From contig CAYUHX010000003.1 in the NCBI GenBank assembly GCA_964444705.1, positions 3,248-67,247 of the forward strand: a stretch of DNA of 64,000 bases, given 5' to 3'. The DNA is from an uncultured Gammaproteobacteria bacterium (GTDB lineage: Bacteria > Patescibacteriota > Patescibacteriia > Magasanikbacterales > GWA2-37-8). Made by a program: the position numbers and the translations under genes. Of this stretch, positions 16,594-58,683 are shown piece after piece. The notes under the pieces were generated by a model. That model did no database searches and was not told the origin of the DNA. It worked only from the letters and a program-made list of their open reading frames with translations. Position 1 is the first letter of the stretch; every line of letters starts with the position of its first letter.

Positions 16594-16613
16594 AAAACAG
16601 ACACAATTGACAG

Positions 16614-16640
16614 AGCCCGCTACGGAGTACGTAGCGGGCT
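16614..16640. terminator. GC-rich hairpin terminator shared by htpX (+) and the cupin gene (-)
   Basis: Perfect 10-bp inverted repeat AGCCCGCTAC...GTAGCGGGCT; a T-run follows on the minus strand. Confidence 0.5.
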
Positions 16641-16663
16641 TGTGGCTTGGGCGGTACAGGAAC

Positions 16664-17104
16664 TCAGGTGCAGCAGCGAGCGAGGATGTCGCTCTCGCCG
16701 ACGCCCTTGGTGAGCGCATCCAGCTCAGGGCAGGCGTGCCAGTCCGGGCCTTGGGTTCGGCCGAACTTGACCGTGTGGATCGCCGCTCCCACAGGCAGGT
16801 AGACGTTGTGGGCGACGCCGATCTCGGTGGTCACGGTGTCTCCCTCCCGTAGGATCCGCCAGACCGGCTGCCCATCGCGCAGCTCCACGATCGCCATCCA
16901 GCCAGACTGGACGGCGTAGATCTCCTTCACTCCCAAGTGGAAGTGCGAGTTCTGCCAGGCACCCTCGTCACCAGCCTGAGTGCGGATGTAGCCACTTCCG
17001 TCCTGATGCATCCGGCGAAACCGGAACTCCTGGTTCGGCATCAGCTCATCCTTGATTGCAGCCATACCAAACTCCTGGGCTTCCTCGAGAGACAAATTCG
17101 CCAT
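16664..17104 (-). CDS. cupin-domain protein (high-GC island 1)
   Basis: 146-aa ORF at ~62% GC with two cupin motifs (SHFHLGVKEIYAVQSG; GDTVTTEIGVAHNV). A strong SD (GAAGGAGG) precedes the ATG. Confidence 0.65.
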   Translation of the reverse strand: MANLSLEEAQEFGMAAIKDELMPNQEFRFRRMHQDGSGYIRTQAGDEGAWQNSHFHLGVKEIYAVQSGWMAIVELRDGQPVWRILREGDTVTTEIGVAHNVYLPVGAAIHTVKFGRTQGPDWHACPELDALTKGVGESDILARCCT

Positions 17105-17308
17105 GAGGCCTCCTTCTTTCTGACGAGATGATTAGACTGTAAAATAGCCAAATTTTCGCTAAAATACAGTCCAATCATCCACGTTTTAAAGAGCTTTCTA
17201 TTCAAGAAATAACAAATATATATACCATAAAAAATAGGTTTTGTCAAGATAACAATACAATCAATTAGCTAACCTTAGCTAGTTTTAAAAATGACCAATT
17301 TTTTAATA

Positions 17309-17947
17309 TCAAAACTCCTTCCCTTGAACCATTCTTCCCCACTCATCAATTTCTCCCACAATCATTTGCGTAGGGACAAATTCTTCTTGAAACAACGGAA
17401 TGCTTATTTCTTTATTTTTTTCAACAAACTCGACTAAACGAAAATCTTCCGGTCGTAATTTTACCAAAGTGAGATGGGGTAAAAATTGATTACCCGACAG
17501 TTCGGTTCCGTAGGTGAGAATATGTGCACGGACCAATTCCGGCGTGGTCGGATCATCCACCATTTGCTTAAATTGACGCATCAGTCTTCCTTCGGTCAGT
17601 GGCATAATTTTGACCACGACCTCTTCGTGAATTTTTTGCAATTCAGGAGTATTCACTAGATTCCAAAATAGATTATTGCTGGAAGGATGGAAAAATAACT
17701 TTCTTTCAAAAACTAACGACACCAACGTGAAGGCATTTTTAATTTTTTCAACGATGTTATGTACGCTCTCTTTTTGGATAGAAGAAATCCGTGCTTGGAA
17801 TAAAGTAATATGTGGATAGTTTTCAGGACTTAATTCTAAAAAAGGCACTATCCCGATTTGTTTAAGTTGCTTGACTAGTTTAAATGAAGCCAAAGATACA
17901 CGCTCGGAAACGGTAAAAGCAACACCAATATTAACTTCTGAATTCAT
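17309..17947 (-). CDS. 2H phosphoesterase superfamily protein (LigT/2'-5' RNA ligase-like)
   Basis: Two H-x-T/S-x motifs each followed by hydrophobic residues (YPHITLFQ and LPHLTLVKL) in a 212-aa protein. Confidence 0.5.
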   Translation of the reverse strand: MNSEVNIGVAFTVSERVSLASFKLVKQLKQIGIVPFLELSPENYPHITLFQARISSIQKESVHNIVEKIKNAFTLVSLVFERKLFFHPSSNNLFWNLVNTPELQKIHEEVVVKIMPLTEGRLMRQFKQMVDDPTTPELVRAHILTYGTELSGNQFLPHLTLVKLRPEDFRLVEFVEKNKEISIPLFQEEFVPTQMIVGEIDEWGRMVQGKEF

Positions 17948-27739: not shown

Positions 27740-29845
27740 CTATTCAAGGTGTACTTCCTTTCCCCATTCTCGCACACGTTCAAGCATGAGCGGATACTCT
27801 GCCAAGCGCGGTGCAAGCACAAGCGCTGCTTCACGCGCTTTTTTAATAAGCGTATGATCGGTGAGCTTCGCGAGGCGTAGCTGCATAAGTCCGCTTTGCT
27901 CAGTGCCATACACCTCTCCCGGACCACGCTGCTCTAAATCTTTTTCAGCTAATTTAAAACCATCATTGTGTGCTTCAAAAAACTGCAATCTTTCCCGCGC
28001 GCGCGCAGAAAAACTATTCGTAAATAACAAACAATATGATTGATATTCCGATCGTCCCACTCGCCCACGAAATTGATGGAGCTGTGCCAAACCAAACCGA
28101 TCGGCGTCTTCAATCATCATTACGCTCGCGTTAGGAACATTCACTCCCACCTCGATCATCGACGTAGAAATAAGAATGTCGAGCGCTCCCGAATTAAAAG
28201 CACCCATAATCTCCTCTTTTTCTTTTGCCTTCATTTTTCCATGCACATATCCTACTCTCAAATCGGGAAATACTGTCTTAGATAAACGTTCGTATTCTGA
28301 TAACACTGATTTTTTATCACTCACCTCACTTGCGCGCACCATCATCTCACCCTCATCTTTATTCACATCCTTCTCTAACGCTTTTTCAATGAGCGAACAA
28401 ATAACAAATACTTGCCGACCCTTTTTTACCTCTTCCCGAATAAATTGATACGCACTTTCTCGGCCGGCTGGCGCCACTAATTTTGTACTAATTTTTTTTC
28501 TACCCGGCGGCAATTCGTTGATAATAGATACATCAAGATCTCCATAAAGTGCCAAGGCAAGCGAACGCGGAATCGGTGTGGCGGTCATGCTCAAAAAGTG
28601 CGCATTCTCTCCTTTCTCTTTAATCGTATGACGCTGACTCACACCAAAACGATGCTGTTCGTCCACAATCACAAGTGCTAATTTTTTAAAAGCCACATTT
28701 TCTCCCAGCAGCGCTTGTGTGCCAATAATGATGTCTAACTCTCCCGCTTCAATGAGATCTAAAAATTTTTTCTTAGAAATTGATTCATCATTTTGCGTTA
28801 TCATTTTTTGCCCACGTGTAAACAAACCAATACGAACACCATATGATCCAAGCAGTTCTTTGAGCGAGGCAAAATGTTGGGCAGCTAAAATTTCTGTTGG
28901 CACCATGAGTGCTGATTGGAAACCGTTCAAAAAAGTATTATATAATTCAAGCGCCGCCACCACCGTCTTACCCGAGCCAACATCTCCAGAGAGCAATCGA
29001 TTCATAGGTGTTGATTTTTGTAGGTCTTGCACAATTTCCCACGCAGCAATTTTTTGCGTGCGCGTTAGTGCAAACGGCAAATGCGCCACAAAATTTTTTA
29101 CCTCATTTTCTTTAAAAGCGATACTCGGCGCATGTGTGACATTTTTTTTAAGGCGGCTAAGTTCGGCCTGAATTTGAATGAGTAAAAGTTCATCAAATTT
29201 AAGCCGTTCACTACTCGCTGCCAAATCTTCCGGACTATCAGGAAAATGAATCTGCTGCAGCGCGCGCGGTAAAAGCTCAAGCTTATTTTTTTCTTGAATA
29301 TCTTCCGGCAACCAATCAGAAATACTCTCCGCTAGGGGAATACATTGCTTCAGCAAAAAACGAATTTGTTTTTGCGTTATTCCGGCCGTGAGCGGATACA
29401 TGGGAACGAGTCGTCCTGTGTGGGTGGGTGCGCTGTCTGCTTGTTCTTTTTCATACACCGGGCTCGTAAGATGCGGACCCAGCATATCGCGCGCCACTTT
29501 GCCTGATAAAAATAATGTATCGCCCGGGTGCAGTGTTTTGATTAAAAATGGCTGATTAAACCATACCACACGGGCACTGCCCGAAGCATCGCTCACAAGC
29601 GCCTCGGTGATGAGTAGTCGCTTCCGAAAACTGCGTTTGTTCGCAATCAGTTCAAGCTTGCCCCGCACCGTCACCATTTCACCTTCCACCAAACTATCCA
29701 TGGGCATTATCCGGCGCAAATCTTCATAGCGAAAAGGAAAGTAGTACAATAAATCACGCACGGTTTTTACACCCAATCGCGTCAAAACAGTCGCCAATTT
29801 TGGACCAATTGATTTAAGTTGTTTAATTGATGTCGTGCTATTCAT
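27740..29845 (-). CDS. recG: ATP-dependent DNA helicase RecG
   Basis: Wedge domain plus helicase motifs (SGDVGSGKTVVA; DEQHRFGV; TATPIPRS); start taken at the internal ATG (MNSTTSIKQL). Confidence 0.9.
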   Translation of the reverse strand: MNSTTSIKQLKSIGPKLATVLTRLGVKTVRDLLYYFPFRYEDLRRIMPMDSLVEGEMVTVRGKLELIANKRSFRKRLLITEALVSDASGSARVVWFNQPFLIKTLHPGDTLFLSGKVARDMLGPHLTSPVYEKEQADSAPTHTGRLVPMYPLTAGITQKQIRFLLKQCIPLAESISDWLPEDIQEKNKLELLPRALQQIHFPDSPEDLAASSERLKFDELLLIQIQAELSRLKKNVTHAPSIAFKENEVKNFVAHLPFALTRTQKIAAWEIVQDLQKSTPMNRLLSGDVGSGKTVVAALELYNTFLNGFQSALMVPTEILAAQHFASLKELLGSYGVRIGLFTRGQKMITQNDESISKKKFLDLIEAGELDIIIGTQALLGENVAFKKLALVIVDEQHRFGVSQRHTIKEKGENAHFLSMTATPIPRSLALALYGDLDVSIINELPPGRKKISTKLVAPAGRESAYQFIREEVKKGRQVFVICSLIEKALEKDVNKDEGEMMVRASEVSDKKSVLSEYERLSKTVFPDLRVGYVHGKMKAKEKEEIMGAFNSGALDILISTSMIEVGVNVPNASVMMIEDADRFGLAQLHQFRGRVGRSEYQSYCLLFTNSFSARARERLQFFEAHNDGFKLAEKDLEQRGPGEVYGTEQSGLMQLRLAKLTDHTLIKKAREAALVLAPRLAEYPLMLERVREWGKEVHLE

Positions 29846-29964
29846 AACCATTCTTGAGTATACCATCAAACACAAAGACAAAAAACCCAGCCTAAACCAA
29901 AAATTCGGGACAAAAAATGCCGCCGAAGCAACAAACTTCAAGCGGCACTTTTATTTCTTAATCT

Positions 29965-32163
29965 TTATTTTTTTTCATCAACCGGGAACCTATCATTCAC
30001 AATCTTTTTCAATTGGTCTCTGAGCCCGCCTGTTCGAGTAATTCCACTAAGAAGCATCGCTTCATTTAAAGGACCGCGAACCCCTCGTTCCGCGAGGGTA
30101 TCTAATATCATATTTAATTCTTTAATGCTCTCAATGGTTTTTGCTAACGAAACTGGAGCACCGTCACTGCCTTTTAAATCACCCTCTTTCCAAGAATTAA
30201 GTGTTTTGAGTATCTGTTCAATAGAGAGATTTTTAAAACCTTCTCTCTTCACAAAATCAAATGAATCATAACTACTCACTTCTCGACGTTTCATTTCTCG
30301 ATTGACTACATGCAATTTTCGAGCGGTTAATAGAGCGTCATGTAACTTGAAATCAACATCTTCACCCCGAGCCATTTTCGCTTCTATATCGTTAATTAGC
30401 CCCTCTACTAATTTTGGGGTGTAACGATCAGTACGAGCGTATTTTTTATACTCATTACCCAAACTCTCAGTCAGGGATTCCTTCATTCCATTTAAGGTCT
30501 CCCCATCCAGAGATAGAAGTGAAGTATCAGCATCAGGCAATGCAATCTTATCGAGTTTAGCAAACTCTCTTTGAAGAGTTGCTGCGGTTTGAGCTCGTTC
30601 ATTGTCTAATTTATGAATTTCTTTAATATTTTGCAAACCTTCAATCATGACCGCGCTTTTAACTCCTCTCTTTTTCTTTTCACGCGCAATCTGATTGTCA
30701 ATTTCTTCATCACTTTCTAGCGCATATTGGGCTAATCTTGGCTCTAATTTAATTTGTTCATCAAGCTCATCCTCACGCGGCGTCAGCTCGGGTAAAAGCT
30801 CTTCAAGATTAAGGCGCATTGCCTCAATTGAGTGTACATTAGCTGGACGAGCCGCTTCAGCTGCACGGGCTTCAGCCACAGCGCGCGGTTCACCAGCAGT
30901 GGCTCTCACACGCACTGAACCTGAAACACCAGCATGTTCGCCAGAAATACGGAAATTGGCAGTACGTGGAACGGTGTTGCCAGCAGCAGCTGTTGGTGTC
31001 TCAGCTGCAGACTGAACTGTTTCTTTTTTCTTAAAAAAACCAGTTACCGCTTTCCACGCTCCTTTGAAACCATTTCCAAAACGAGAAAGCAAACTTTGTT
31101 TTTTTATTTTTAATCCATCTAATAACGCCTTTGTTTCAGCATCTACCTGCGCTTGAGTAGCGTTTTCAATGGTGTGGGCAGCTTCGTCTAACTCTTCATC
31201 AATCGCCGCACTTTGTTTTTCAGCAACGTTTTCCATTTCCTTCATCGCTCCCTCCACCGCATATTCAGCATAATATTCTTCTGTTGCTTTGTCTGACAAA
31301 ATTTCGTTTACATCTCTCAAAGCTTGATCAAATTCAGCTCGATCAGCATCGTTTGATGCTTTTTCTTTAGCTGCCTCCACAGCTTTATCGGCAGCAATAA
31401 CTTCTTTACCATTATCAAGAGTATCTTTAAGCACGGCATCAAATTCAGCTTTATCTTCGGCTTTAGATTTTTTCATCTCCGCCAACTTAGCCCGCAATTC
31501 TGTCATGTTTTTTCTCGTCGCTTCTGGCGCCAGTCCTTTGCCGCCTGATTTAGCAAGATAGGCATCCACCTTTGCATCACGAGCAGCTTTTTCTTTAGCG
31601 GTATCTTTTTGTTCAGCCTTCAAATCTTCCGCACCAGCATTCGCTAACACATCTTTTGCATCCAAAATCTCACCCGTAGTTTGGTCAACGTATGAATCTT
31701 TCAATTTCACTTGACTCATCACATCGCCTTTTATACCACCGGCGGCAGAACGAATAGCCGCTTCTTGATTACGTACATCACGATGTTTTTCTTCGTAAAA
31801 TTTGTCTCTTTTTCGATCATACTTATCTGCTCGAGCGGCAGCTTCAGCTTCTGAAGCGGCGGCAGATTTTTTTGTTGGTTTATACGTCCCAAGATTGGCA
31901 CGAATTTTATCCATCCGAGCTTGTTGATCAGTACTAATGTCTAACACCTTTTTAACAGCTTTATTTATTAAACTCGTTTTTTCTTTTTGGCCCAGCTGAC
32001 CACCAGGCGCATTTTCTACTGCCACAATCATAGCATCGGTCACTTCGCTTTCCACCGAATAATCACCGTTTGCCCTTTTCAAAGCTTCTGGGCTATTCAA
32101 CAAAGACTCACGCACCGCGGCGTCGGTTGATTGTTTTCCCCCACGTTCTTGGAGCTGGGCCAT
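29965..32163 (-). CDS. large hypothetical Ala/Glu/Lys-rich protein (732 aa)
   Basis: A long ORF with coiled-coil-like low-complexity composition and no catalytic motif. A weak motif (LSRFGNGFKGAWKA) resembles the 2189-aa giant protein. Confidence 0.55.
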   Translation of the reverse strand: MAQLQERGGKQSTDAAVRESLLNSPEALKRANGDYSVESEVTDAMIVAVENAPGGQLGQKEKTSLINKAVKKVLDISTDQQARMDKIRANLGTYKPTKKSAAASEAEAAARADKYDRKRDKFYEEKHRDVRNQEAAIRSAAGGIKGDVMSQVKLKDSYVDQTTGEILDAKDVLANAGAEDLKAEQKDTAKEKAARDAKVDAYLAKSGGKGLAPEATRKNMTELRAKLAEMKKSKAEDKAEFDAVLKDTLDNGKEVIAADKAVEAAKEKASNDADRAEFDQALRDVNEILSDKATEEYYAEYAVEGAMKEMENVAEKQSAAIDEELDEAAHTIENATQAQVDAETKALLDGLKIKKQSLLSRFGNGFKGAWKAVTGFFKKKETVQSAAETPTAAAGNTVPRTANFRISGEHAGVSGSVRVRATAGEPRAVAEARAAEAARPANVHSIEAMRLNLEELLPELTPREDELDEQIKLEPRLAQYALESDEEIDNQIAREKKKRGVKSAVMIEGLQNIKEIHKLDNERAQTAATLQREFAKLDKIALPDADTSLLSLDGETLNGMKESLTESLGNEYKKYARTDRYTPKLVEGLINDIEAKMARGEDVDFKLHDALLTARKLHVVNREMKRREVSSYDSFDFVKREGFKNLSIEQILKTLNSWKEGDLKGSDGAPVSLAKTIESIKELNMILDTLAERGVRGPLNEAMLLSGITRTGGLRDQLKKIVNDRFPVDEKK

Positions 32164-32170
32164 ATGTGTA

Positions 32171-32347
32171 TGTTTAAAGATTATTTATTTTAGAATAGAT
32201 ATTTTTAACTTTTTGTGTGTCTGCCTTTTCAATCGCTTTTGCAACAATTTCTTGCTTTTCTTTTCTAATTTCAGCTAAACCTTGAAGAAAATCGATAAAG
32301 TCATTAAACGCGTCAGCAAGCACTTTTTTCAATTCGTCGATGGTCAT
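32171..32347 (-). CDS. small ORF (57 aa) immediately upstream of the 732-aa gene; possible co-transcribed partner
   Basis: ATG at 32347 and TAA ending 7 nt before the 732-aa start. It lies downstream of a strong promoter and is absent from the track because it is <60 aa. Confidence 0.25.
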
Positions 32348-32376
32348 ACATTTGAATATACAGGTAAAACTCTTTC

Positions 32377-32405
32377 AGTATACCACAAAATAGTGTTTTT
32401 GTCAA
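32377..32405 (-). promoter_or_regulatory. strong sigma70 promoter (minus strand) for the small-ORF/732-aa operon
   Basis: On the minus strand: TTGACA, a 17-nt spacer, then TGgTATACT (extended -10). Confidence 0.5.
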
Positions 32406-32429
32406 TCAAAAAATTCCGCTAGAAAAAGC
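32401..32429. repeat. left copy of ~29-bp imperfect direct repeat flanking high-GC island 2
   Basis: GTCAATCAAAAAATTCCGCTAGAAAAAGC versus GTCAAGACTGAAAAGCCGCTAGAAATAGC at 34185-34213, sharing the CCGCTAGAAA core and GTCAA. Confidence 0.4.
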
Positions 32430-32434
32430 GGAAT
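32413..32434. terminator. hairpin terminator (ATTCCGCT-agaaaa-AGCGGAAT) followed by a T-run
   Basis: Perfect 8-bp stem with an A-run before and TTCTGATTTTTT after. Confidence 0.5.
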
Positions 32435-32679
32435 TTCTGATTTTTTAGACAGAAAAGAAGCTATAGAGATGCGGAAAAGAAATTGTGATGAAGAGAATCT
32501 CATCATGGTGCTTCCTGCTAAATTTTGGCAGAAAAAACCGTGATGGGACCGCGCTGCGAGGCAGACGCGGCTGTGCCCTACCGAAGCTCTGGATTCGCCG
32601 GAGAGGCGATGCGCTTGGAAGCGCAAGCTTGGGCCAGCCGCGTGCACAGAACTTGAGTGCGGCTGATGGGAAGGTAGGT

Positions 32680-33894
32680 CTAGCGACCGGCGCGGGGCTG
32701 CGGGGCGAAGAGCGGCTGGGTCCGCTGGAACACGTGGTTCCGGGTGACCGTGCCGTCGTTGGTGATGGTGGCCTTGACCGCGGCCTCGCGCTGGGCCTCG
32801 CGGTCCTCGTGGCGCTTGAACATCTTGTCCAGGGCGTCGCCGTCCGGGAGCTTGTTCAGGTCGGCCCGGGTGGCGAGCGGCGCCAGGTCGGCGCGGGTCG
32901 CCGCCTCGCCCACGTGCGCGCTCATGGCCTGCATCAGGGTCCTGCCCTTGCTGTCGGTGACGGCGTTGCGGATCGCCCGGGTGTCGCTCTCGATGCCGCG
33001 CACGTCCTCGTGGACGGCGGTGAGCTGCGAGCGGGTACCGCTCACGTTGCCGTTGATGAACAGCGTGCTCACCAGGGCGGCGGCGCCCAAGGCGCAGGCG
33101 ACGATGGCGAAGGTGCGGATGTTGGCGACGGTGGCGATGATCACGCCGAGGCGCCGGTCCAGGCGCTCCTCGGCGCCATAGAGGTGGTGCTGAGCGACCA
33201 GATCGTCCAGGTCCTTCCGGCGCGCCAGGGGCTCCAGGTCGTCGGCGGTGACGAGGCCGGCCTTGTTCAACCGGCCGACCACGGCCTGGGCGATCGCGTC
33301 GCCGCTGAGGATCTTGCCGGCCAGGGTCTCCGCCAGCTTGGCCATCTCGGCCTGGGTGGTGACCCCGTACTCCTTCAAGATCGCCTTCATCCGATCCGCG
33401 GTCGGCACCGATCCCATGTCGCGGTGGATCGCCTTGACCATCTCATCGGTGGTCAGCGGCGGGCGCGGCGGGGTCAGCGGCGGGCGCGAGTCGGGGCGGG
33501 ACTGGGTGCCGTTGCCGGTGCCGGGCAGGGTGGGGGTGCGGGACTGGGGCTGCGGGCCCGTGGGGCTCTTGGAGGGCTGCTGGGCGGGGGCGCCGTTGGC
33601 CGGGGCGGCCGCCTTGTCGCCGTTGGTGGCCGGGACGGCCACGGGCTGGGCCGGGGCGGCCGCGGCGGGCTGCTTGGTGCCGGCGGGGGCGCCGTTGGCC
33701 TGCGGGGCGACGTCCTGCTTCTCGGTCTTGCCGCCGCCCACATCCTCCATCGGGATGGGGATGCTGCCGCTGTCCCCGGGCTTGGCCTGGGGCTGCTGCG
33801 CCAACTGGAGGGCGGTGCCGATGGGCAGGGTGCCGGTGACGGGCGGCTGGCCAGCGGGCAGGACGGGGGACGAGGGACCAGTCTGGGTCTGCAT
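32680..33894 (-). CDS. Pro/Ala-rich membrane protein (high-GC island 2, ~70% GC)
   Basis: 404-aa ORF with SD AAGGAG upstream, a low-complexity P/A/Q-rich N-terminus, one TM (GVIIATVANIRTFAIVACALGAAALVSTLFI) and a helical C-terminal domain. Confidence 0.55.
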   Translation of the reverse strand: MQTQTGPSSPVLPAGQPPVTGTLPIGTALQLAQQPQAKPGDSGSIPIPMEDVGGGKTEKQDVAPQANGAPAGTKQPAAAAPAQPVAVPATNGDKAAAPANGAPAQQPSKSPTGPQPQSRTPTLPGTGNGTQSRPDSRPPLTPPRPPLTTDEMVKAIHRDMGSVPTADRMKAILKEYGVTTQAEMAKLAETLAGKILSGDAIAQAVVGRLNKAGLVTADDLEPLARRKDLDDLVAQHHLYGAEERLDRRLGVIIATVANIRTFAIVACALGAAALVSTLFINGNVSGTRSQLTAVHEDVRGIESDTRAIRNAVTDSKGRTLMQAMSAHVGEAATRADLAPLATRADLNKLPDGDALDKMFKRHEDREAQREAAVKATITNDGTVTRNHVFQRTQPLFAPQPRAGR

Positions 33895-34160
33895 TGCGGT
33901 ACTCCTTGATGTCTGCTGTTTTCGGTGAACTGGAAAAAAAACCCTTGCTCATGTGTGGAGTTCCCCCCACAAAGACAGGGTATTCGACGCTTGAACTATT
34001 CAAGCGACAAATACCCCATCTTTTGAGAGGAAGCTTTTTCCGCTCATAAACCTACCTTAAATTGTAAAGAACTTATTTCGGCCAAAAAAGACCATTTCTT
34101 TTTTGACTTTAGGCTGTTTAAACAGTGCTTTATTTCTTTCAATTGTTTAAACAACAAATC

Positions 34161-34189
34161 ATAATAGCACATTTTTGCCTTTTTGTCAA
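34161..34189 (-). promoter_or_regulatory. sigma70 promoter (minus strand) inside the right repeat copy, directed toward the island-2 gene
   Basis: On the minus strand: TTGACA, a 17-nt spacer, then TATTAT. Confidence 0.45.
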
Positions 34190-34213
34190 GACTGAAAAGC
34201 CGCTAGAAATAGC
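34185..34213. repeat. right copy of ~29-bp imperfect direct repeat flanking high-GC island 2
   Basis: See the left copy at 32401-32429. Confidence 0.4.
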
Positions 34214-34240
34214 AAAAAGTAGCCAGGTGGCTACTTTTTG
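34212..34240. terminator. strong hairpin downstream of the giant gene (13-bp stem GCAAAAAGTAGCC/GGCTACTTTTTGC)
   Basis: Perfect 13-bp inverted repeat with a 4-nt loop, 14 nt beyond the giant-gene stop. Confidence 0.5.
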
Positions 34241-34253
34241 CTCTATTTTAAGT

Positions 34254-37200
34254 TTATTTTGTACTGAAGAGACCTGATCGTTCGATAAAATCGCGCGAAC
34301 TATCATACCTAAATGTACTCCCAGAGGTGGTTTTTACCACAATGGCACCAGTACCAATCTCACGATTAAAGACAAAATCTTTGTTATAAATAAGTGTCTT
34401 TTGTCCATCGACAGGATTAAGCGCCAATATCGCATGACTATCTTGTGCGGTGACCACAGGATGGTCGGCATCAAGACGATAATGATTCAATAATAATCTT
34501 ACTTCAGCACTTCCTTCTCCAGAAGGACGTAATAGCTCAAATACCTTATTCGGATCAATTGATTCATTTTTGATATCTTTCAGCACTTCTGCAGTTTGCA
34601 GCATTCTCTCGCTGCTTAACGACACTCTCCCACTTCCCTGCAGAACACCATTCATGTTTTGCTGCCAATCTCTAAGACGACTCAAAGCTTGAGCAGCCGG
34701 GTTTGATTCACGATCAGCTGATACAACTTTTACATTACCAAGATACCTCTCAATTTGTCGGCCGAAGGTACTTACCTGCGCCTCTACTTCATTTCGATTA
34801 CCGAGTTCACGAAATACCGCTGGAAGTTCTGCCTCCGCAGCCGTGCTTTCTACCACACTTGTTCTCGCTGCTGGCGCAGTTGATTTTGTTTCTAGTGCTG
34901 CCGCACCACGGGTGGCGGCCGGTTGCTCAGCGCCGACAGGCAATTTCCACGCTTCTTTTTCAGGGTCAAAACGAGTGATCACTTCTTCTCTTGCCACATC
35001 TTTTCCTTCTAAGACCACACGTACAGATCGACCATCTACCTGAATTTTCTCTGGATCTAAATTATCTAAGATAAATGGACCATTACTTTCGCGCGTATTG
35101 CCAATATAGACTTCAGCTTTTTTCTGCAAATCTTGCGGATCAACTTTCCATTGTGTTTCACGCACCTCACCGTGACCTGAGCCGCCAATCAAGGGGGCTT
35201 TACGCTCATCGAAGCCGAAGAAGCGCACGTTACCACGGAGTGAGAAATGATGCACTTCGTCTGCACCAAACTCGGCGTTGGCAATTTCGGTGGTGCCTTT
35301 GGCCTGAAGCAAGCGGCCAGTGGCATGAATAAGGGCCTGTTTTTCAGCCGCAGGCAACGTAGTCATTCTTTGATATTTGTCTACCAACTCTGGCAAAGAA
35401 TCACTACTTGGTTTTAAACCCGCTTCTTTCAAATACTCCAAGTGATGCCCACTAAAATTTTGGGATTTCAAGAAAGCCAACGCTTGTTCGGTGCCACCGT
35501 GAGCCAAGAGTTGTTCAAACGTAGCCTGCTTTACATCGCGCAGCACTTCGTATGGGGTATCAACTGCACTCTTAAACACATCACCGTGGAGCGATGAGGG
35601 GTGATTGCCCGAAGTACTCGCTTTCAAAATAGTCTGCAGTGATTCAGGGTTAGCGAGTGAAGGATATTTTTTAACAAGCGCAGCGAAAAAGACGCCAGTG
35701 TCTTTATCATCGATGATTTTTTCTCTTTCGCCAAAGGTCTTGAGTTCAGCAAACACATTTGATTCTTTTCTTCTTTCCGCAAGCGCACCAGCACCATCAG
35801 CAATTCGTCTTAAGGCTTCAGGCCCAGCTGCCTGCCCTGGTTCGGCCTTCGTAAGTAAACTACGGCCAAGTTCGGCAGCTCCTTGCTCCAAACTCACCGC
35901 CGCATTTTTCATCGCTCCAGGAATCCCGGCTAAACGCTCCGCGGTCTGCACCGTACCACCAACTGCATTATTATATAAAGCAGCCCCTAATTCTTTTTGT
36001 TCAAAGGCTCCAATCAATTTATCAATTGCTTGACTGGCGTGGGTATCAGTATTACCAAGCACAATGTCGGTAAGGCCCACTGCTCGTGCCATTGTTCCAA
36101 ACGCACTCACAAAGTCTGCGCCACGACGAACGACACCACCTTCTCCTTTGCGGCCTTTACCTCTAATCGCACTCCACCATTCTCCCAATGAGGTTAACAT
36201 TTCCTCTTTCACTGCTTTGGCACGATCGGCTTTTTCACCTTCTTGACCAGCACGATCAAGACCTTTGCTCACCATTTCAACGAGTGACATGGCACCATAC
36301 GCCGCGCCGCGCCACAAAGGCATACCAGCGAAGACCAAAGCCGTGTTTGCCACATCACGCACGCGAGCAATGGTTGAATTTTTACTATACAAAAATGCTT
36401 CGAGTGTTTTTTGCACTTTTTCATTACGCTGTTTAGTTTTATTTTCTGCCCCATCTTTATATTGATCAAACAGCACTTCTAAACGGCCAATAAGTTTTTC
36501 CTTCTCGGCAGGGTCAATAAAACGAGAATTTAAGATATTACCATTTACCCGAGTGAATCTTTCTTGCACACGAGCATCACTCTGTTCAATGGCCACATCC
36601 CGATTTTTCCAAAGTGCAAACACCTCTTCCATACCCCGAGCAATGAGCGCACGCTCAGCCTTGGCGTCTTGTCTTTCTTTAAAATAATTATAGATGTCGC
36701 CTTTTTTACGGATCGCTAATCCAAGATCGGCGAACGTCTTGAAACCAAACACTGAAAATACTGTGTCATACGTGGCTTTGCCGGCAGCCTTCCAAAAATC
36801 TTTGCTGGTAAATAATTCTTTTGTACCTTTCCAGAAACGACTAAGCACACCTTTCTTCTCTGCCGGCGGCACAACTCTTTCAATCCTGGTGGGCGAAGGC
36901 GCTGCCTCTGCCGCAGACAAATCCTCAACAAACGGCCTGTCAGCAGAACGATTAAAGGTTTCTGCTAATTCTGCCAAGGTTGAATCTTCCACAATAATCG
37001 ACGAAGCTGGCTTTGCACTCTCAGGTGACGAGGCAACAGACTCAACCATACCAGCCGCACCCATTCTCTCTCGATCGGGCGCAGCTACGGCGGCACTGAG
37101 CGCAGCCAATTCTTGAGCGGCCCCAGCAGCCGGTGTTACTATTTCTTTTGTCACGGCAGGAGCAGCTTCTTTTGGTTTTGCCGCTGGTTTTTCGGCACCA

Positions 37201-40200
37201 CCAAACGTCGCCAAAAGATTGGCAAAGTAGCCCACTAAACGATTGAGATTATCAACATCTTCGGTAGTGGCCTTTGGATGATTAAGAATTCTTCTTAACA
37301 TTTTGTCCGCCCGATCATACTCTTCGGCGTTTAAAAACACACCACTTTCAATCATGTTGTTCCAATAAGTGATTGCTTCCCCTTGCAAGGCTTCGGCCGC
37401 AGCCGCTCGCGCTTCTTTTAACGCCAACTCACGTCGTGCCTTCAGATCTTTCATTCCTTCGTTTTCAAACCACACTTTCCAGTAGGTGCCAGTGAGTAAG
37501 CGATCAATTTCGTTTCTAAATGTATGATCGGGATGCATACCAAATGATTCTTTTTTACCCGCTGCTTTATCGGCATGCCAAAGCTGTTGCGCTTTCTCAA
37601 TGGCTTCGTCAAGCGTAAGCGCTTTGCTTTCTTCCTTTTTTGATTCGGCACCGACTATTACATCACCGGCTCCAATTCGAGAAACACCAATACGAAAACC
37701 TTCATCAGCTTTCTCTGCTGATTTTTCGGTACGAATAGCTTTACGAAATTCTTCAACCGCAAAACGCGCTTCTTTACGGGCAACAGTATCTGATTTTCCT
37801 TGTGTTATCGCGCGCCAATAGGCCCCCACCCGTATTTCTTGAGCTTCATTCTCTGGTTTAAAATCAGAATTGATACCCCAACGCTCTTCATTGCCCTCAT
37901 CGGCAGGTTCTGGCTTGACCAGTCTGGCTTCAGCAATATACCGACGAGCGTCTTCGAGCGTGATCGGTCGAAGATCAGGGCCAATGTCTGAAACCTCTTG
38001 CCCTGGCTTAGCTCCTTTCGCTTCAGACTCAGCGGTGACCAAACGTTCAAACCGTCGTACCAAAAAATTAAGACGATCGATATCTTCCACCGAAAAATAG
38101 GGGTGAGTATTGATTTTTTCTAATAATTTTTCCCCATCTTTTACCTTTGCCACCGCTTCTCCGGCGTTAAGCCAGATATCAAGCGCTTGATCACGAAGAA
38201 AATAGGCCGCAGTGGCACAGGCTTCTTTTTGAGCCACACCATCATTTTTACCTTCAAAATGAGCGCGCCAAAATGCGCCTACGCGAATAGTTTCAACCGG
38301 GCTCCGTGGTTTAAACGACGCCATGATTGGACCATCTTTTTCTTCTTTCTTACCTTTTTCAATAAAAGCATTGGCTTCATCCAAGGTAATCGGCCGAGGG
38401 CTCAAAAATGCTTCACTCTCCCCGGTTTCCTGCTTTCTTACTTCAGCAGCACCCGCACTTCGTTCTGGCATCTTCCACAAACCACGAATACCGGCAACCG
38501 GAATGTTCAATCGCTGCACCACCTGCCCATACAACATGCCAAACCTATTTAAATTTGGTTCTTTTGTTGCCGAACCAAGATTGCCGCGCAATTGGTGCAG
38601 GTTTTTAATCAATTGCTCGTCTTTTTCTAAGGCGCTGGCATGATTCTTTTTAAGATAGGTAAGAAGGTCGTTAAATTGCTGCTCGCCTTCTTGTTTAGAT
38701 GCAGCGGCAACATAGTCAGCACCGGGCGCAACCTCACTCGGTCGAACTTGTTCTTTCAATAATGCAAAATTTGCAGAAAATTCTTTCAATGCCTCTTCAA
38801 AAGCGGCGGCTTCTTGCTCTCCCCGCGCATCCCACAATAATAATCTTTCCAAGGCTGCTTCTACCTCACCAAACTCTTTGGTTTTTTCTTTTCTTCTCTC
38901 TGCATAGGCATCACCAAGCGCCGTATAAAACTCAGTGTATTGTTTAAGAATACGTTCTTTTTTTCTAAATAGTGTGCCAAAAATTTTGGCTTCGGCGTTG
39001 GCCGCCGCCTTAACTTTATCGACATCAAATTTTCCACCACTCCTCTTTTTTTCTTCGCCTGCTTCTAACCACACCCGGCCACGCACACCACTAAATATCA
39101 AATCGGTTTCTGTAGATCCTTCTTTTTCTTCCCATTTTTCAGGTTTGAATTCTTTTAATTTTTTCAAATAATTTTCGAACTTGGCTCGTATTTCGGTAAA
39201 CGAATCACCGGCGGCTTTTTCTACCTCTTGAGCAGAGATGCCGGTAAACACCTCACGCGAAACTTCTTGAACAAAATTAAAATTCGAATCGGCCTTACCA
39301 ACAAGAGAAGCAACAATCTTTCCACACTTCTCAGCCAAAACCTCTATTTGTGTAGTAAATCGAGCAGTAAATGGTTCTGAAGAAATTTTCTTTCTCAAAT
39401 CTTCAATTTGACCAAGCAAACTTGACGAATCTGAATTCTTACCGAGATGCTGTGCAGTCATTCGACCAATCACTGGCATTATTTCTCCTAGCTTAACTTT
39501 TTCATCTACTTCAGACTTAATTCTGCTTAATACCTTACCCATCGCCACCAAATATTCTAGTGCAGTCTTTTTTTGCTCTTCAGAAGAAAGTTCTGTGGCT
39601 TCAACAACAGGTGCGGAAGGAAGCTCTGGCGCGGGCGCGGCCTCAGGGGCAGGAGCAGTATTTGTGGTTCTATCAGCGACGACGCGGTTAACAGAAAATT
39701 TTCCAGATTCCGTAAAAGGTTTTAGATCTTTAATTTGATCTCCAGTACCTGATTGAGAAATCGTATAATGTCTTCCATCAAACACCAATTTCAAACCCGC
39801 GGCTACTGGAGGAACTACCTGACGCCCCGCGTCAGCTTGATTTGTGACATCGGGGGCAGCTGCTTCAACCACAACAGGTGCAGCCTCGGCAATAGCAGCA
39901 GCTAACTGAACTCGAGCGGCCGCAACTTGTGCACGCAATGCTTGCTGAGCAGCAACCTCGCGATCTTTCTTTTCCAACCAGGCTTCAAACCGAGCTTGAT
40001 ACTCTTCTAAACGAGCCGCCACAGCTGAAAGATCTGTAGTTTTAGGATCTGCATCTTTTAGATCGCGGGAAAATTCAGCTGCTTCATCAGACAGAACATC
40101 TAATTCATCTCTTAACTTAGAGTTGTTTAATCCCCATCTTTGCAAATCTGAAGATTGCTCGGAGAATTGATTCAAAAAATCGATAAAACCTTTTTCTATC

Positions 40201-40823
40201 CTACTTTTTGCACGCTCCCGGTCGCCAGCTTCTCTATTTTTCGCGAGAACAGCGCCAGGACTTTCATCTTCATCAGACTCACCTTCTTCATCATCAACGG
40301 GAGCCGACTTTATCTCCGGTGCGCTGGCCGTAGGTGCTGCAGTAGTTGCGGAAACTTCAGGTCCTTTTGATGGTTCTCCACCCTTATTAGCAGATGATTG
40401 TGCCGTAGTTTCATTTTCCCCACTTATAATTTTTTTAAATTGAGCAGCTTGTTTTATCTCTACAGCATCACCCTCTCTCCCTCCTCTTCTCGTAACAAAC
40501 GCTAACAATCTTTGTTCACCGCTCTGTTCCACCGCGTTCAATCGAACGGTGAAAGAACCATAGTCCATCACAACACCACCATTTTTGGTGTCTTTAAAAA
40601 AAGCTACTGGTCGAAACTGCTGATCAAGATCAGCAAACTGGATTTTAAAAATTTGCTTTTTCCCTACAAACTTTGCAAAGCTACCTCCTTCTTGTCCATT
40701 AAACGAAGCTGAAACGTCTTTTTTAGCTACTTTTTTTCCAATTTGAAACTGTCCTTCTAAACGTTCCCAAAACTCTCGCCCACCGGCTGAATCTCTACCT
40801 TCTACTCCGTGTCCTTTACTCAT
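34254..40823 (-). CDS. giant hypothetical protein (2189 aa), Ala/Glu/Lys-rich with three internal ~130-aa tandem repeats
   Basis: A single uninterrupted ORF. Repeats occur at roughly aa 808-945, 950-1065 and 1065-1205 (PITLDEANAFI...RVGAFWRAHFEGKNDGVAQKEA / PITLEDARRYI...RVGAYWRAITQGKSDTVARKEA / LTLDEAIEKAQ...TGTYWKVWFENEGMKDLKARRELA). Confidence 0.75.
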   Translation of the reverse strand: MSKGHGVEGRDSAGGREFWERLEGQFQIGKKVAKKDVSASFNGQEGGSFAKFVGKKQIFKIQFADLDQQFRPVAFFKDTKNGGVVMDYGSFTVRLNAVEQSGEQRLLAFVTRRGGREGDAVEIKQAAQFKKIISGENETTAQSSANKGGEPSKGPEVSATTAAPTASAPEIKSAPVDDEEGESDEDESPGAVLAKNREAGDRERAKSRIEKGFIDFLNQFSEQSSDLQRWGLNNSKLRDELDVLSDEAAEFSRDLKDADPKTTDLSAVAARLEEYQARFEAWLEKKDREVAAQQALRAQVAAARVQLAAAIAEAAPVVVEAAAPDVTNQADAGRQVVPPVAAGLKLVFDGRHYTISQSGTGDQIKDLKPFTESGKFSVNRVVADRTTNTAPAPEAAPAPELPSAPVVEATELSSEEQKKTALEYLVAMGKVLSRIKSEVDEKVKLGEIMPVIGRMTAQHLGKNSDSSSLLGQIEDLRKKISSEPFTARFTTQIEVLAEKCGKIVASLVGKADSNFNFVQEVSREVFTGISAQEVEKAAGDSFTEIRAKFENYLKKLKEFKPEKWEEKEGSTETDLIFSGVRGRVWLEAGEEKKRSGGKFDVDKVKAAANAEAKIFGTLFRKKERILKQYTEFYTALGDAYAERRKEKTKEFGEVEAALERLLLWDARGEQEAAAFEEALKEFSANFALLKEQVRPSEVAPGADYVAAASKQEGEQQFNDLLTYLKKNHASALEKDEQLIKNLHQLRGNLGSATKEPNLNRFGMLYGQVVQRLNIPVAGIRGLWKMPERSAGAAEVRKQETGESEAFLSPRPITLDEANAFIEKGKKEEKDGPIMASFKPRSPVETIRVGAFWRAHFEGKNDGVAQKEACATAAYFLRDQALDIWLNAGEAVAKVKDGEKLLEKINTHPYFSVEDIDRLNFLVRRFERLVTAESEAKGAKPGQEVSDIGPDLRPITLEDARRYIAEARLVKPEPADEGNEERWGINSDFKPENEAQEIRVGAYWRAITQGKSDTVARKEARFAVEEFRKAIRTEKSAEKADEGFRIGVSRIGAGDVIVGAESKKEESKALTLDEAIEKAQQLWHADKAAGKKESFGMHPDHTFRNEIDRLLTGTYWKVWFENEGMKDLKARRELALKEARAAAAEALQGEAITYWNNMIESGVFLNAEEYDRADKMLRRILNHPKATTEDVDNLNRLVGYFANLLATFGGAEKPAAKPKEAAPAVTKEIVTPAAGAAQELAALSAAVAAPDRERMGAAGMVESVASSPESAKPASSIIVEDSTLAELAETFNRSADRPFVEDLSAAEAAPSPTRIERVVPPAEKKGVLSRFWKGTKELFTSKDFWKAAGKATYDTVFSVFGFKTFADLGLAIRKKGDIYNYFKERQDAKAERALIARGMEEVFALWKNRDVAIEQSDARVQERFTRVNGNILNSRFIDPAEKEKLIGRLEVLFDQYKDGAENKTKQRNEKVQKTLEAFLYSKNSTIARVRDVANTALVFAGMPLWRGAAYGAMSLVEMVSKGLDRAGQEGEKADRAKAVKEEMLTSLGEWWSAIRGKGRKGEGGVVRRGADFVSAFGTMARAVGLTDIVLGNTDTHASQAIDKLIGAFEQKELGAALYNNAVGGTVQTAERLAGIPGAMKNAAVSLEQGAAELGRSLLTKAEPGQAAGPEALRRIADGAGALAERRKESNVFAELKTFGEREKIIDDKDTGVFFAALVKKYPSLANPESLQTILKASTSGNHPSSLHGDVFKSAVDTPYEVLRDVKQATFEQLLAHGGTEQALAFLKSQNFSGHHLEYLKEAGLKPSSDSLPELVDKYQRMTTLPAAEKQALIHATGRLLQAKGTTEIANAEFGADEVHHFSLRGNVRFFGFDERKAPLIGGSGHGEVRETQWKVDPQDLQKKAEVYIGNTRESNGPFILDNLDPEKIQVDGRSVRVVLEGKDVAREEVITRFDPEKEAWKLPVGAEQPAATRGAAALETKSTAPAARTSVVESTAAEAELPAVFRELGNRNEVEAQVSTFGRQIERYLGNVKVVSADRESNPAAQALSRLRDWQQNMNGVLQGSGRVSLSSERMLQTAEVLKDIKNESIDPNKVFELLRPSGEGSAEVRLLLNHYRLDADHPVVTAQDSHAILALNPVDGQKTLIYNKDFVFNREIGTGAIVVKTTSGSTFRYDSSRDFIERSGLFSTK

Positions 40824-40850
40824 AGTAGTGTGCCTAAAAAATAAAGAAAG

Positions 40851-41177
40851 TTATGCTTGAATGTTATTTAATGCATCAGCCGTATCTTTTTCGAGCTTAG
40901 CCATCTCAGCTTCGTATTGTTGTTGAATGAGTTCAAGTGTTTCTCCCGCTTCAGCGTTGAGGTGTGCGGTTTTGCTTTCGAGATATTGCATTTCTAAAGT
41001 TGCTTCCAAGCGCTCTAATTGCTCGAGGCTCATAGCAGGCAGCAAATTAATCATTGCTTCTTTTTCTTCATCTTTCAAATTCATCGCCGCAATCAGAAAT
41101 GCCAATTTTTTGCCATGACCACGGGCAGCAGTAAGTAAATCTTGTGTACTTAATTCTTCGACAGAAGCAACTGCCAT
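40851..41177 (-). CDS. small coiled-coil protein (108 aa) immediately upstream of the giant gene
   Basis: The ORF ends 27 nt before the giant-gene start and has helical, charged composition. Confidence 0.4.
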   Translation of the reverse strand: MAVASVEELSTQDLLTAARGHGKKLAFLIAAMNLKDEEKEAMINLLPAMSLEQLERLEATLEMQYLESKTAHLNAEAGETLELIQQQYEAEMAKLEKDTADALNNIQA

Positions 41178-41376
41178 ATAATTATGTATGAAGAAAATAA
41201 ATGAATGGCTATATATTACCACTTTTTTTAAACTATGCCTATCAAAAATGACTAAAACAGTGCATTATACCCTATTTTTTCGATTTTGTCAATCATGAAA
41301 TACTCAAATTTTATCTATCTTTTAAACAAAAATACTTTTCACGCACGTATGTGTATGTGACACACAATAAAAAAAA

Positions 41377-41425: not shown

Positions 41426-41510
41426 TGGTGCCGCCGGTCGGAATCGAACCGACATGCCGTGAGGCACACGATTTTGAGTCGTGCGTGTCTACCAATTCCA
41501 CCACGGCGGC
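41426..41510 (-). tRNA. tRNA-Leu (anticodon CAA), CCA encoded
   Basis: Cloverleaf GCCGCCG.../...CGGCGGC-A-CCA, anticodon loop CUCAAAA, long variable arm and T-loop TTCGATT. Confidence 0.85.
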
Positions 41511-45541: not shown

Positions 45542-45991
45542 ATGCAACGAGTTACAATTTTTCCAAAGCACTCTTCCTGGCTGGCGTTGCTGGCCGCAGT
45601 CCACATCGGTGGCTGCGATCTGGCACCACCGGCTGAGACGCCTCGCACACCAAAGATCGAGATCTACGGCGAAGCTGACCGCGCCTGCGCCCACACGCCG
45701 GCCGGCTCCAGCCTGCTCGAATGCACCAACTACAGCGGCCAGCTCCTCTGGGGAGCAGAAGCCGCCTGCATCATCAGCATCACCCGTGACGCGACAGCGA
45801 GCGTCTGCACGGTGGCCTGCACCGCGCAGGGATCGCCCAACCACGTGGTGGCGCTCGGCGACCTCACCTTCCTGACACTGGTCGACGGCGTCCCAACCCA
45901 GGTGGGAACTGAAGACCGTTCTGCCACTATGGCGGGCACGACCTGGTGCAACGCAGCGCCCAAGTCGCAACCGCGGACCGGCCAGAAGTAG
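45542..45991 (+). CDS. putative lipoprotein, Cys-rich (high-GC island 3)
   Basis: Signal peptide with a lipobox-like HIGGC, ~65% GC and a strong SD. Confidence 0.55.
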   Translation: MQRVTIFPKHSSWLALLAAVHIGGCDLAPPAETPRTPKIEIYGEADRACAHTPAGSSLLECTNYSGQLLWGAEAACIISITRDATASVCTVACTAQGSPNHVVALGDLTFLTLVDGVPTQVGTEDRSATMAGTTWCNAAPKSQPRTGQK

Positions 45992-46083
45992 CCACGCCGT
46001 CTTCCTCGTCGTCTCCTCGCCGGCCATGCAACCCTGCGGTTGTGTGGCCGGCTCGACTTTCACTTTATTTCTGTTTCAAAAAA

Positions 46084-46112
46084 CCCCAGGTTATGAACCT
46101 GAGGCTTTTTTA
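46084..46112. terminator. bidirectional terminator between the lipoprotein gene (+) and the membrane protein gene (-)
   Basis: Hairpin CAGGTT-atg-AACCTG with extended pairing, flanked by an A-run and a T-run. Confidence 0.5.
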
Positions 46113-56419: not shown

Positions 56420-56633
56420 ATTGCGCAACCATTTAGCATCACTCAATTCAATCACTTCTCGTCGAAGAAAAAATTCTCCCTTTGGCTCGGATAAAGATTC
56501 CGGACAAAAGGGCGAACGACGAGGGGTGGCGGAAGAACAATGCGGCGGCGCCCCCAGCAGTGCGATGCTGCTGGCCGGAGGCGCGACTGCGCGCTGAGTT
56601 GGGATGGTCCAGAGTCCGCGCCGTGCCCGTGGG

Positions 56634-57221: not shown

Positions 57222-57511
57222 CGGAAACACTCTCCTGTAGATTATTCATGCTTCCCTCTCAGCCAACCGAAGCCGAGGGAACAATGGCAAGGACCTAAAA
57301 ACATCTCTGTCTCCAGGCGGTTAAAGAAGCACTTTTTTAAAAAGAAATTCTTCAGCCGCCTGGAAAAAATTGGAAAAGATCAAATGTTATTACCCTTAAA
57401 CCAAAGATAACAACAAATCAAACTAACATACTGTTTAGTAGCTGTCAAGCTATTGTCGAGATAGTTTTATTCTATTTTGTTTATTCTTAGCCAAATATTA
57501 TTTTTTACCCC

Positions 57512-57540: not shown

Positions 57541-57717
57541 AGTTTTAATTTAGTTGTATCTCTCTTTGAGAAGCAATTTGCTCATTACCAAATTATTTCG
57601 GGAAAAATATACAGCTCCAGTGAGTTGGGGAGAATAGAGTCGTGCCAAATAAAACAGTTTTGGATTCTCTTTTCTCTCCAGCTATCTCTACCATCTGCAA
57701 GTCCCCGCGCCAACAAG

Positions 57718-57732
57718 GGCGGGGCAGACAGG
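57718..57732. repeat. left 15-bp inverted repeat (GGCGGGGCAGACAGG) flanking island 5
   Basis: Matches the reverse complement of 58973-58987 (GGCAGGGCAGACAGG) at 14 of 15 positions. Confidence 0.4.
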
Positions 57733-57739
57733 AGCACCC

Positions 57740-58546: not shown

Positions 58547-58683
58547 GCGCCGCGCCACTTTTTCCCGACCCCACCGGAGATCATCCGCCGCCGCTCCCCC
58601 TCGCATGAGGGGTCGAGCGCTCGCTGCCCGTCTCCTCCTGCTTTCTGTTAATAATTATTGTTAACAAAAAGTAGGACACAAAA

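Follow-up and report, generated by a model that had tools for sequence, protein, structure and literature searches.

A Patescibacteria module of small helical proteins and a large protein with a helical core, with one copy between recG and a tRNA-Leu gene

The stretch of DNA considered here (the window, 64,000 nucleotides of contig CAYUHX010000003.1 in assembly GCA_964444705.1) carries five open reading frames (ORFs) between recG (27740-29941) and a tRNA-Leu gene (41426-41510), all of them on the minus strand. Read in the direction of transcription, they are a small ORF for a helical, A/E/L-rich protein of 108 amino acids (aa) at 40851-41177, which has the tRNA-Leu gene 250 nucleotides (nt) upstream of it; a giant gene for a protein of 2189 aa (34254-40823); an ORF of 404 aa (32680-33894) with a GC content at third codon positions (GC3) of 0.97; a second small ORF, of 57 aa (32174-32347); and a gene for an A/E/K-rich protein of 732 aa (29965-32163). 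The 108-aa ORF is separated from the giant gene by 27 nt and the 57-aa ORF from the 732-aa gene by 10 nt. The flanks are ordinary chromosome, with ClpB, RadA and RecG encoded on one side and ParA, ParB, RelA/SpoT and TopA on the other. An initial annotation of this DNA had placed the two small and the two large ORFs at these coordinates, with a high-GC island between the two pairs, and had attributed the genome to the candidate phyla radiation (CPR). We find the same layout, including an island of 70% GC at about 32500-33900, and the nearest relatives of the window's RecG are those of Ca. Magasanikbacteria/Patescibacteria metagenome-assembled genomes (MAGs), at up to 63% identity.

Together, the 108-aa and 2189-aa genes make up one copy of a module known so far from Patescibacteria alone. 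Its components are a small helical protein of about 95-116 aa (A), frequently a further small helical protein of about 57-106 aa (B), and a large protein, 0.7-2.4 thousand aa in length, with a core that is helical throughout. It matches no family or solved fold in the libraries searched, and no paper describing such an A-B-core module was found in the literature. We make these statements of homology, and of the existence of the module, with high confidence.

The family to which the giant belongs was defined by an exhaustive HMMER search with aa 990-2189 of the giant against 1.84 billion representatives. This search gave 143 matches at E<=1e-3, 56 at E<=1e-10 and 7 at E<=1e-30 (each count includes the query), and the best non-self match had E=2e-48. 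When the matches are mapped on the giant, they cover aa ~1290-1640 in about 120 proteins and reach aa ~1890 in about 18, and no relative's match falls within aa 1-1200; iteration on the fetched set yields about 25 members that align over the whole of aa 1680-2189. A core profile built from 64 sequences scores the giant at 4e-88. The protein is accordingly divided into an N-terminal part of about 1300 aa that is lineage-specific and a conserved C-terminal part of about 870 aa; for aa 1-800, no relative was found among the family proteins or among all ORFs of 97 loci. All of the named relatives are annotated as 'hypothetical protein' and come from Patescibacteria MAGs, including Komeilibacteria, Uhrbacteria and 'Patescibacteria group', and one relative labelled Udaeobacter probably represents a mis-binned contig. 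Note that each of the two large and the two small ORFs of the window is recorded as a singleton cluster, and that word-indexed searches, whether started from the giant, from the 732-aa protein or from the core alignment, recovered nothing beyond their own queries and one partial protein. The latter result reflects the limits of the prefilter and is not evidence of orphan status. In fact, word-indexed searches miss families of this kind completely, and both large proteins looked like singletons before the exhaustive HMMER search.

The conserved part of the giant begins with the family core (aa 1323-1650, 35874-36857 on the minus strand), which starts with a basic KKG-phi-phi-x-R motif. In the core alignment (A1), a Pro-rich linker is followed by the basic motif, in the form KKG-phi-phi-x-R-x-KE, and then by three moderately hydrophobic conserved helices (Y.T.TS..G.K..TD, KDALNTALTA.GL..LRG..Y and DF..A.G...R.FGI.G.A), with long charged helices between them. 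The structural model of the core is all-helical and of low confidence, with a predicted local distance difference test (pLDDT) score of 63 and a predicted template modelling (pTM) score of 0.33. Two further conserved domains were obtained by modelling the C-terminal 550 aa with 25 relatives in the alignment, which gave an overall pLDDT of 72. One is a globular domain of helices and beta-hairpins (aa 1704-1894, 35142-35714, minus strand; pLDDT 90-98), and the other is a C-terminal domain in which helices are followed by a beta-sheet (aa 2000-2189, 34257-34826, minus strand; pLDDT about 70-90). The model of the aa 1704-1894 domain, although its pLDDT exceeds 90, has no fold match in the PDB or in BFVD. 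Searches at the sequence level were equally negative: Pfam and NCBIfam report no enzymatic or other domain (E<0.01) in any of the five window proteins, so that the giant is, as described initially, a protein without a recognisable enzymatic domain; PDB searches with both large proteins as single sequences, and with profiles of the core and A alignments, returned nothing significant; scanning the individual members of the core and A alignments against Pfam was likewise without a significant result; and with PADLOC, none of the five proteins matched an anti-phage defence model at E<0.01.

Ahead of the core, the giant contains three tandem repeats, R1-R3 (aa 806-936, 948-1058 and 1062-1206; nt 37206-38408, minus strand), with the motif ITL-D/E-EA ... 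RVGA-F/Y-WRA ... GK.D ... KEA. The initial annotation had pointed to these repeats, and they are significant by two procedures. When each third of aa 800-1210 is compared with the rest by BLASTP, R1/R2 gives E=3e-12, R1/R3 gives E=3e-11 and R2/R3 gives E=2e-4, and a profile built from the three copies, from which the boundaries above are taken, finds exactly three matches in the giant. R2 lacks the C-terminal half of the repeat unit. At the DNA level, Tandem Repeats Finder detects no tandem repeat in this region, which indicates that the duplication in the giant is old. The repeat profile also matches the N-terminal part of the protein P0021 (E=5e-3) and a 1043-aa protein in the locus L089 (full-sequence E=3e-6, in a small database), where two or more copies are significant and others are weaker. 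The genome of L089 has a RecG that is 62% identical to that of the window. In this locus, the 1043-aa repeat protein and a 1199-aa core protein are encoded by separate adjacent genes (L089:6643-13600), and the giant of the window therefore looks like a fusion of two proteins that are separate in L089, unless fission has taken place in the L089 lineage.

Gene order around the family was compared in 14 non-redundant loci with family members (L081-L087, L089, L091, L092 and L094-L097), or 15 with the window; among the loci with a named source are ones from Komeilibacteria and Uhrbacteria MAGs. The pairing of a small ORF with the giant, first noticed in this genome, extends across related genomes: a homologue of A lies directly upstream of the family gene in 15/15 loci, the window included. 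It is recognised by tblastn in ten loci (E-values of 1e-12 to 1e-20), and a profile of A built without the four most distant loci matches those four at 1e-19 to 1e-33. The A proteins carry the motif GKKLGFLIA...LLPxMSxEQL, have G22, L25, L46, P47, Q53 and E62 invariant in their alignment (A4), and match nothing in Pfam or the PDB. A B gene, for 57-106 aa, is located between A and the large gene in L085, L089, L091 and L094-L097, and thus B is present in 8 of the 15 loci when the window is counted; L089 has two copies, one before the gene for the 1043-aa protein and the other before that for the 1199-aa core protein.

The copy of B in the window is the 57-aa ORF, whose conservation had been in question. 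Of the 498 window ORFs, it is the one that a profile of the seven non-window B sequences scores highest (E=6.9e-6, 21.3 bits), and 0 of 2000 composition-preserving shuffles of this ORF reach its score, the maximum being 17.4 bits. It does not lie between A and the giant gene; it is found 1.9 kb downstream of the latter, at the head of the 732-aa gene. The 108-aa and 57-aa proteins show no similarity to each other, and A and B are, judged by sequence, two different components of one module and not duplicates. In the window genome, B is displaced from A and now heads an orphan gene for a coiled-coil protein of 732 aa.

The surroundings of the module differ among the relatives. In L087, L092, L094 and L095 it stands beside smpB and infC-rpmI-rplT, and since L094 and L095 belong to the distantly related Komeilibacteria, this housekeeping synteny across distant lineages indicates vertical inheritance. 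In the Magasanikbacteria-like relatives, genes of about 265 and 355 aa and a Wzz-like gene of about 200 aa precede the module, and a GC-rich stretch follows it, after which come Wzy_C, a GHL15/FG-GAP protein and a Mur ligase; the window contains none of these neighbouring genes. As side observations, the Komeilibacteria have a Band_7 (SPFH/flotillin-like) gene and a gene of about 175 aa ahead of the module (L094:5857-7346, L095:5945-7347) without the Wzz-like block, the upstream contexts in Komeilibacteria and Magasanikbacteria are both membrane-associated, and the Komeilibacteria locus L094 contains, from 5 kb past the family gene, the start of a called gene of 10,379 aa that extends beyond the end of the locus (L094:19464-22504).

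Putative signals for transcription are found throughout the block, all on the minus strand. Upstream of A there is a promoter-like site with 12/12 agreement with the sigma-70 consensus (TTGACA-17-TATAAT, 41264-41292). Two further sites have 11/12 agreement and an extended TG element, one between the giant gene and the island ORF (TTGACA-17-TATTAT, 34161-34189) and one upstream of B (TTGACA-17-TATACT, 32377-32405). A terminator-like perfect hairpin of 15 bp (34211-34242) is located 12 nt past the stop codon of the giant gene, and a terminator-like hairpin followed by a T-run (32411-32436) is located after the island. These sites fit three predicted transcription units: A with the giant gene, the island gene alone, and B with the 732-aa gene, perhaps continuing into recG.

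From this architecture we propose, tentatively, that the module forms a structural assembly. The large protein would be a cytoplasmic or membrane-peripheral scaffold, and A and B would bind large helical proteins as stoichiometric subunits or as assembly chaperones. The conserved C-terminal half would build or anchor the assembly, while the fast-evolving N-terminus would act as a spacer or an interaction arm; the moderately hydrophobic conserved helices, together with the basic amphipathic motif, could mediate peripheral binding to the membrane. The idea of a structural assembly comes from three properties, namely a helical giant without catalytic signatures, a conserved body joined to a freely evolving arm, and small helical proteins encoded at translational-coupling distance. 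The placement of the giant in the cytoplasm or on the inner face of the membrane comes from the lack of export and transmembrane signals described below. We regard this mechanism as possible rather than probable.

The main rival of the scaffold is the proposal of the initial annotation, in which an epibiotic CPR cell carries the giant, and perhaps the 732-aa protein too, as a surface or tether protein, and the small partners are export chaperones, comparable with those of type III or type VII secretion systems (T3SS, T7SS) or with the Lap proteins that serve LXG toxins. A lineage-specific N-terminal part of about 1300 aa joined to a conserved C-terminal half is a pattern typical of exposed proteins with an anchoring part. 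Moreover, envelope genes (Wzz-like, Wzy_C, Mur ligase) surround the module in relatives, genes for secreted proteins, lipoproteins or membrane proteins follow it, and small helical ORFs tightly coupled upstream are reminiscent of secretion chaperones. However, the sequences of the large proteins do not have the expected signals. Both large proteins and the relatives inspected have a hydrophilic N-terminus with no signal peptide, and the hydropathy scan found no 19-residue window of transmembrane grade in either large protein: the giant peaks at a 19-residue Kyte-Doolittle (KD) value of 1.54, within an Ala/Val-rich stretch, and the 732-aa protein stays at or below 1.2 in all windows. In addition, Pfam and NCBIfam (E<0.01) report no adhesin, anchor or known surface domain in the large proteins, no Ig, LPXTG or LXG/WXG domains were found, and there is no dedicated secretion ATPase among the neighbourhoods listed. 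The three hydrophobic helices of the core were also considered as transmembrane segments and ruled out as unsupported, as their mean KD is ~1.0 and only 1/64 members reaches 1.6. A classical exported surface protein thus finds no support in the sequence, although export by a non-classical route may be possible, and on balance we consider the surface or tether role unlikely. For the small partner, a chaperone or export function may be possible.

The GC-rich island raises the related question of whether the genes that follow the module are connected with it. The 404-aa ORF has GC1/2/3 of 0.70/0.53/0.97 in a genome of ~43% GC. In its protein, a single transmembrane helix (aa 262-280) lies between a P/A/Q-rich N-terminus and a helical C-terminus; the ORF has its own AAGGAG ribosome-binding (Shine-Dalgarno) site and, despite its high GC content, an AT-rich near-consensus promoter. 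The leader of the island gene (266 nt, 33895-34160, minus strand) is strongly structured, with a minimum free energy of -85.7 kcal/mol (z=-6.4 against shuffles), and in it a hairpin with 25-bp arms (33971-34023) precedes a G-rich stem and a U-run. Attenuation, or some other regulatory role in cis, is possible for this leader. It belongs to no Rfam family, and an Rfam scan of the whole window and of the island region gave three tRNAs and sub-threshold noise, and nothing else. The exact 404-aa sequence is absent from a collection of 15 billion proteins and no plasmid match was found. The flanks of the island show no target-site duplications or long inverted repeats, and contain only the hairpin terminators and short AT-rich chance repeats.

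GC-elevated genes are also found directly downstream of the family gene in other loci. In L083, L084, L086, L087, L089 and L092 they have 56-85% GC in genomes of ~40-45%, and in L096 they have 38-51% GC in a genome of 25% GC (the stretches are L083:5500-7000, L084:5600-8400, L086:5900-8200, L087:16400-20900, L089:14000-16700, L092:15250-16000 and L096:14500-18400); several of these genes reach a GC3 of 0.8-0.96. They encode varied secreted proteins, lipoproteins and single-pass membrane proteins, some with Cys-rich CGDG...CDDGN repeats, and the 404-aa protein has no detectable similarity to those of the other loci. In L087 (16463-19628), the N-terminal leader of ~60-80 aa (MEMQGIKPSCSAPNVSQCLSPFRRWTHSQAEVLM.KFSK...) is almost the same in three GC-rich ORFs whose C-terminal parts differ, an arrangement that resembles a cassette or variation array. 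Two observations are added for completeness. In L089, a bAvd/23S_rRNA_IVP gene (17005-17388) adjoins the GC-rich stretch downstream of the family gene; bAvd is an accessory protein of diversity-generating retroelements. The window itself has four more GC-rich patches of 64-67% GC (16601-17000, 45601-46100, 56501-57200 and 57701-58700), in which GC3 is 0.81 for the ORF at 16664-17104 (minus) and 0.89-0.94 for two ORFs whose signal sequences are lipoprotein-like, at 56634-57230 (minus) and 57740-58546 (plus).

The site downstream of the family gene may therefore be a hot spot for the capture of foreign genes; many genomic islands have been reported in Patescibacteria (PMC12455944). A bolder version, which we put forward as a speculation with little likelihood of being right, is that A, B and the giant are the fixed part of a Patescibacteria host-interaction locus. 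The conserved C-terminal half would then build a new envelope-associated structure that the hypervariable N-terminal arm diversifies, and the downstream site would be the hot spot where unrelated GC-rich genes (GC3 up to 0.97), perhaps derived from hosts or neighbours, are captured behind native promoters. If this were true, the giant and the island would be functionally linked and not merely adjacent.

The chromosomal position of the module in the window differs from that in relatives, as it is located next to tRNA-Leu and recG, where relatives have TopA-DprA-Der. In 80 RecG-anchored loci of related genomes, no gene for any of the five proteins lies less than 10 kb from recG, and thus the block is not syntenic with recG elsewhere. 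Comparison of the window (27740-54300) with L001, L003, L010 and L019 additionally reveals a synteny break. In these relatives, TopA-DprA-Der and a protein of ~510 aa adjoin recG; in the window, the TopA-DprA-Der block is inverted and located ~16 kb from recG, with the module, tRNA-Leu, parAB, relA and two small genes between.

The absence of the block beside recG in the 80 relatives, and the tRNA-Leu gene so close to A, could also be read as traces of a phage or mobile-element remnant inserted by the tRNA gene. The giant would then be a tape-measure-like helical protein and the small ORFs its chaperones, an architecture that recalls gpG/gpGT followed by the tape measure protein, and the 732-aa protein does have a weak PHROG match to a tape measure family (E=0.075). 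That value is not significant, however, and no PHROG match is. The conserved half of the giant is unmatched in 50,697 phage genomes and among BFVD folds, and the five-sequence alignment of close core relatives (A2) has no relative in IMG/VR. No integrase, capsid or tail genes occur in any of the 15 loci, and in L087, L092, L094 and L095 the module is embedded in the conserved housekeeping synteny described above. A phage origin is consequently very improbable.

The relation between the two large proteins has to be judged separately, because the initial annotation described them as paralogous-looking; paralogy would imply that the two pairs arose by duplication of one small-plus-large pair. They are indeed alike in composition, with A+E+K making up 31% of the giant and 35% of the 732-aa protein, each large gene follows a small ORF on the same strand, and both proteins contain a short KK-x-phi-phi-S-R-F motif. 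Nevertheless, the best BLASTP alignment between them has E=0.42 and is not at the motif, the core profile run over the 498 window ORFs with filters off (--max) matches only the giant, and the repeat profile does not match the 732-aa protein. Furthermore, A and B are different families that elsewhere occur together in one operon. Paralogy can hardly be maintained in the face of these results. The 732-aa protein itself has no relative in an index of 5.8 billion proteins, in the 97 loci or among the family proteins.

What remains is the motif, which had been described as a shared LSRF motif: its presence in both proteins stands, but homology does not follow from it. It is found at aa 1323 of the giant (EKKGVLSRFWKG), where it opens the conserved family core, and at aa 354 of the 732-aa protein (KKQSLLSRFGNGFKGAWKAV), in a segment of aa 354-381 that corresponds to nt 31021-31104. 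A regular expression for the motif matches at least 36 of 142 relatives, and in the 22.6 thousand residues of window ORFs its matches are limited to the two large proteins and one further ORF; its chance expectation in the 732-aa protein is ~0.03. Within that protein, RFGNGFKGAWKAVTGFFK is the most amphipathic 18-residue window (hydrophobic moment muH 0.58, rank 1/715). It is a short linear motif and does not amount to homology, and as a link between the two large proteins it is at most suggestive. If the module is a structural assembly, the 732-aa protein would be recruited to it through B and through this shared basic amphipathic motif.

That the large ORFs are annotation artefacts, non-coding or mis-assembled, might be suspected from their singleton status at 90% clustering and the lack of a named homologue by word-indexed search, but such an artefact is very improbable, given that the codon-position GC of both (GC1/2/3 of 0.59/0.43/0.35 and 0.58/0.39/0.30) is a native coding signature, that GC3 of the two large and two small ORFs (0.26-0.35) matches the genome's own codon-position GC, that promoters and terminators lie at the expected places, and that the C-terminal half of the giant is conserved in more than 100 proteins with conserved gene order, the case for the 732-aa ORF consisting of its coding signature, its promoter and the B ORF upstream.

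Several points weigh against a structural assembly in which A and B are the partners of the large protein. The scaffold and partner roles are inferred from architecture, that is, from helical content, the absence of catalytic signatures and tight gene coupling, and the all-helical model of the core has low confidence. The assignment of the 57-aa ORF to B amounts to 21 bits, and the 732-aa protein is linked to the module by its position and by one short motif with the chance expectation given above. Transmembrane segments and signal peptides were assessed by hydropathy alone, which is a crude test. Finally, an exposed protein that faces the host would likewise be compatible with the hypervariable N-terminus and with the neighbours for envelope biogenesis in relatives (Wzz-like, Wzy_C). 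Taking the module and the proposed role together, we consider our explanation as a whole to be evenly balanced between being right and being wrong.

CPR/Patescibacteria make up a large share of bacterial diversity, and their biology depends on proteins that match nothing known. Two ORFs that appeared to be orphans are now a defined Patescibacteria module with two small partners, a conserved body of ~870 aa and ~140 relatives. The surprise is moderate, since CPR genomes hold many conserved hypothetical families; among the results of Meheust et al. (2019, PMC6744442) are many lineage-specific families of unknown function in CPR genomes. With its clear boundaries, conserved residues and a confidently modelled domain that has no detectable structural relative, the module offers a concrete target for interaction modelling, metaproteomics and cryo-electron tomography (cryo-ET) in the few CPR co-cultures that can be grown.

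Several known systems resemble the module in architecture. The phage tape measure protein with gpG/gpGT is alike in having one or two small helical ORFs just upstream of a very long, mostly helical protein, with a few conserved hydrophobic segments and a variable length of the large protein. It differs in that there is no sequence or fold similarity and no phage gene context, the module being chromosomal and, in four loci, in housekeeping synteny, and no frameshift-linked chaperone pair of the gpG/gpGT kind is seen in the module. The type VII LXG/WXG100 proteins with their Lap partners are alike in that two helical proteins of ~60-110 aa are encoded upstream of a large helical protein, suggesting a pre-assembly complex. 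Here, the differences are that the giant, A and B have no LXG/WXG100 Pfam domain, that no EssC/FtsK-type ATPase occurs among the called neighbours, and that the variable part of the module's large protein is N-terminal, whereas LXG toxins carry their variable toxin domain at the C-terminus. Membership tests for the tape-measure and LXG/WXG100 families were negative throughout.

Another likeness concerns a gene next to the module. In L086 and L096, the gene just downstream of the family gene encodes a protein with a disordered N-terminus, one transmembrane helix and a coiled coil, which has a sub-threshold match to DUF948 (PF06103). The 404-aa protein of the window has the same layout, but it has no match at E<0.01 to DUF948 or to the L086 and L096 proteins, so that the likeness is one of architecture only. 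For the large protein itself, Scy/FilP of Streptomyces and the HMW proteins of the Mycoplasma terminal organelle, which are coiled-coil cytoskeletal or scaffold proteins, provide a further comparison, again by architecture only. They share with it a large, A/E/K-rich, helical and fast-evolving sequence without enzymatic domains, internal repeats and coiled-coil gene neighbours, whereas the module is distinguished from them by two conserved globular C-terminal domains and by its obligatory small partners.

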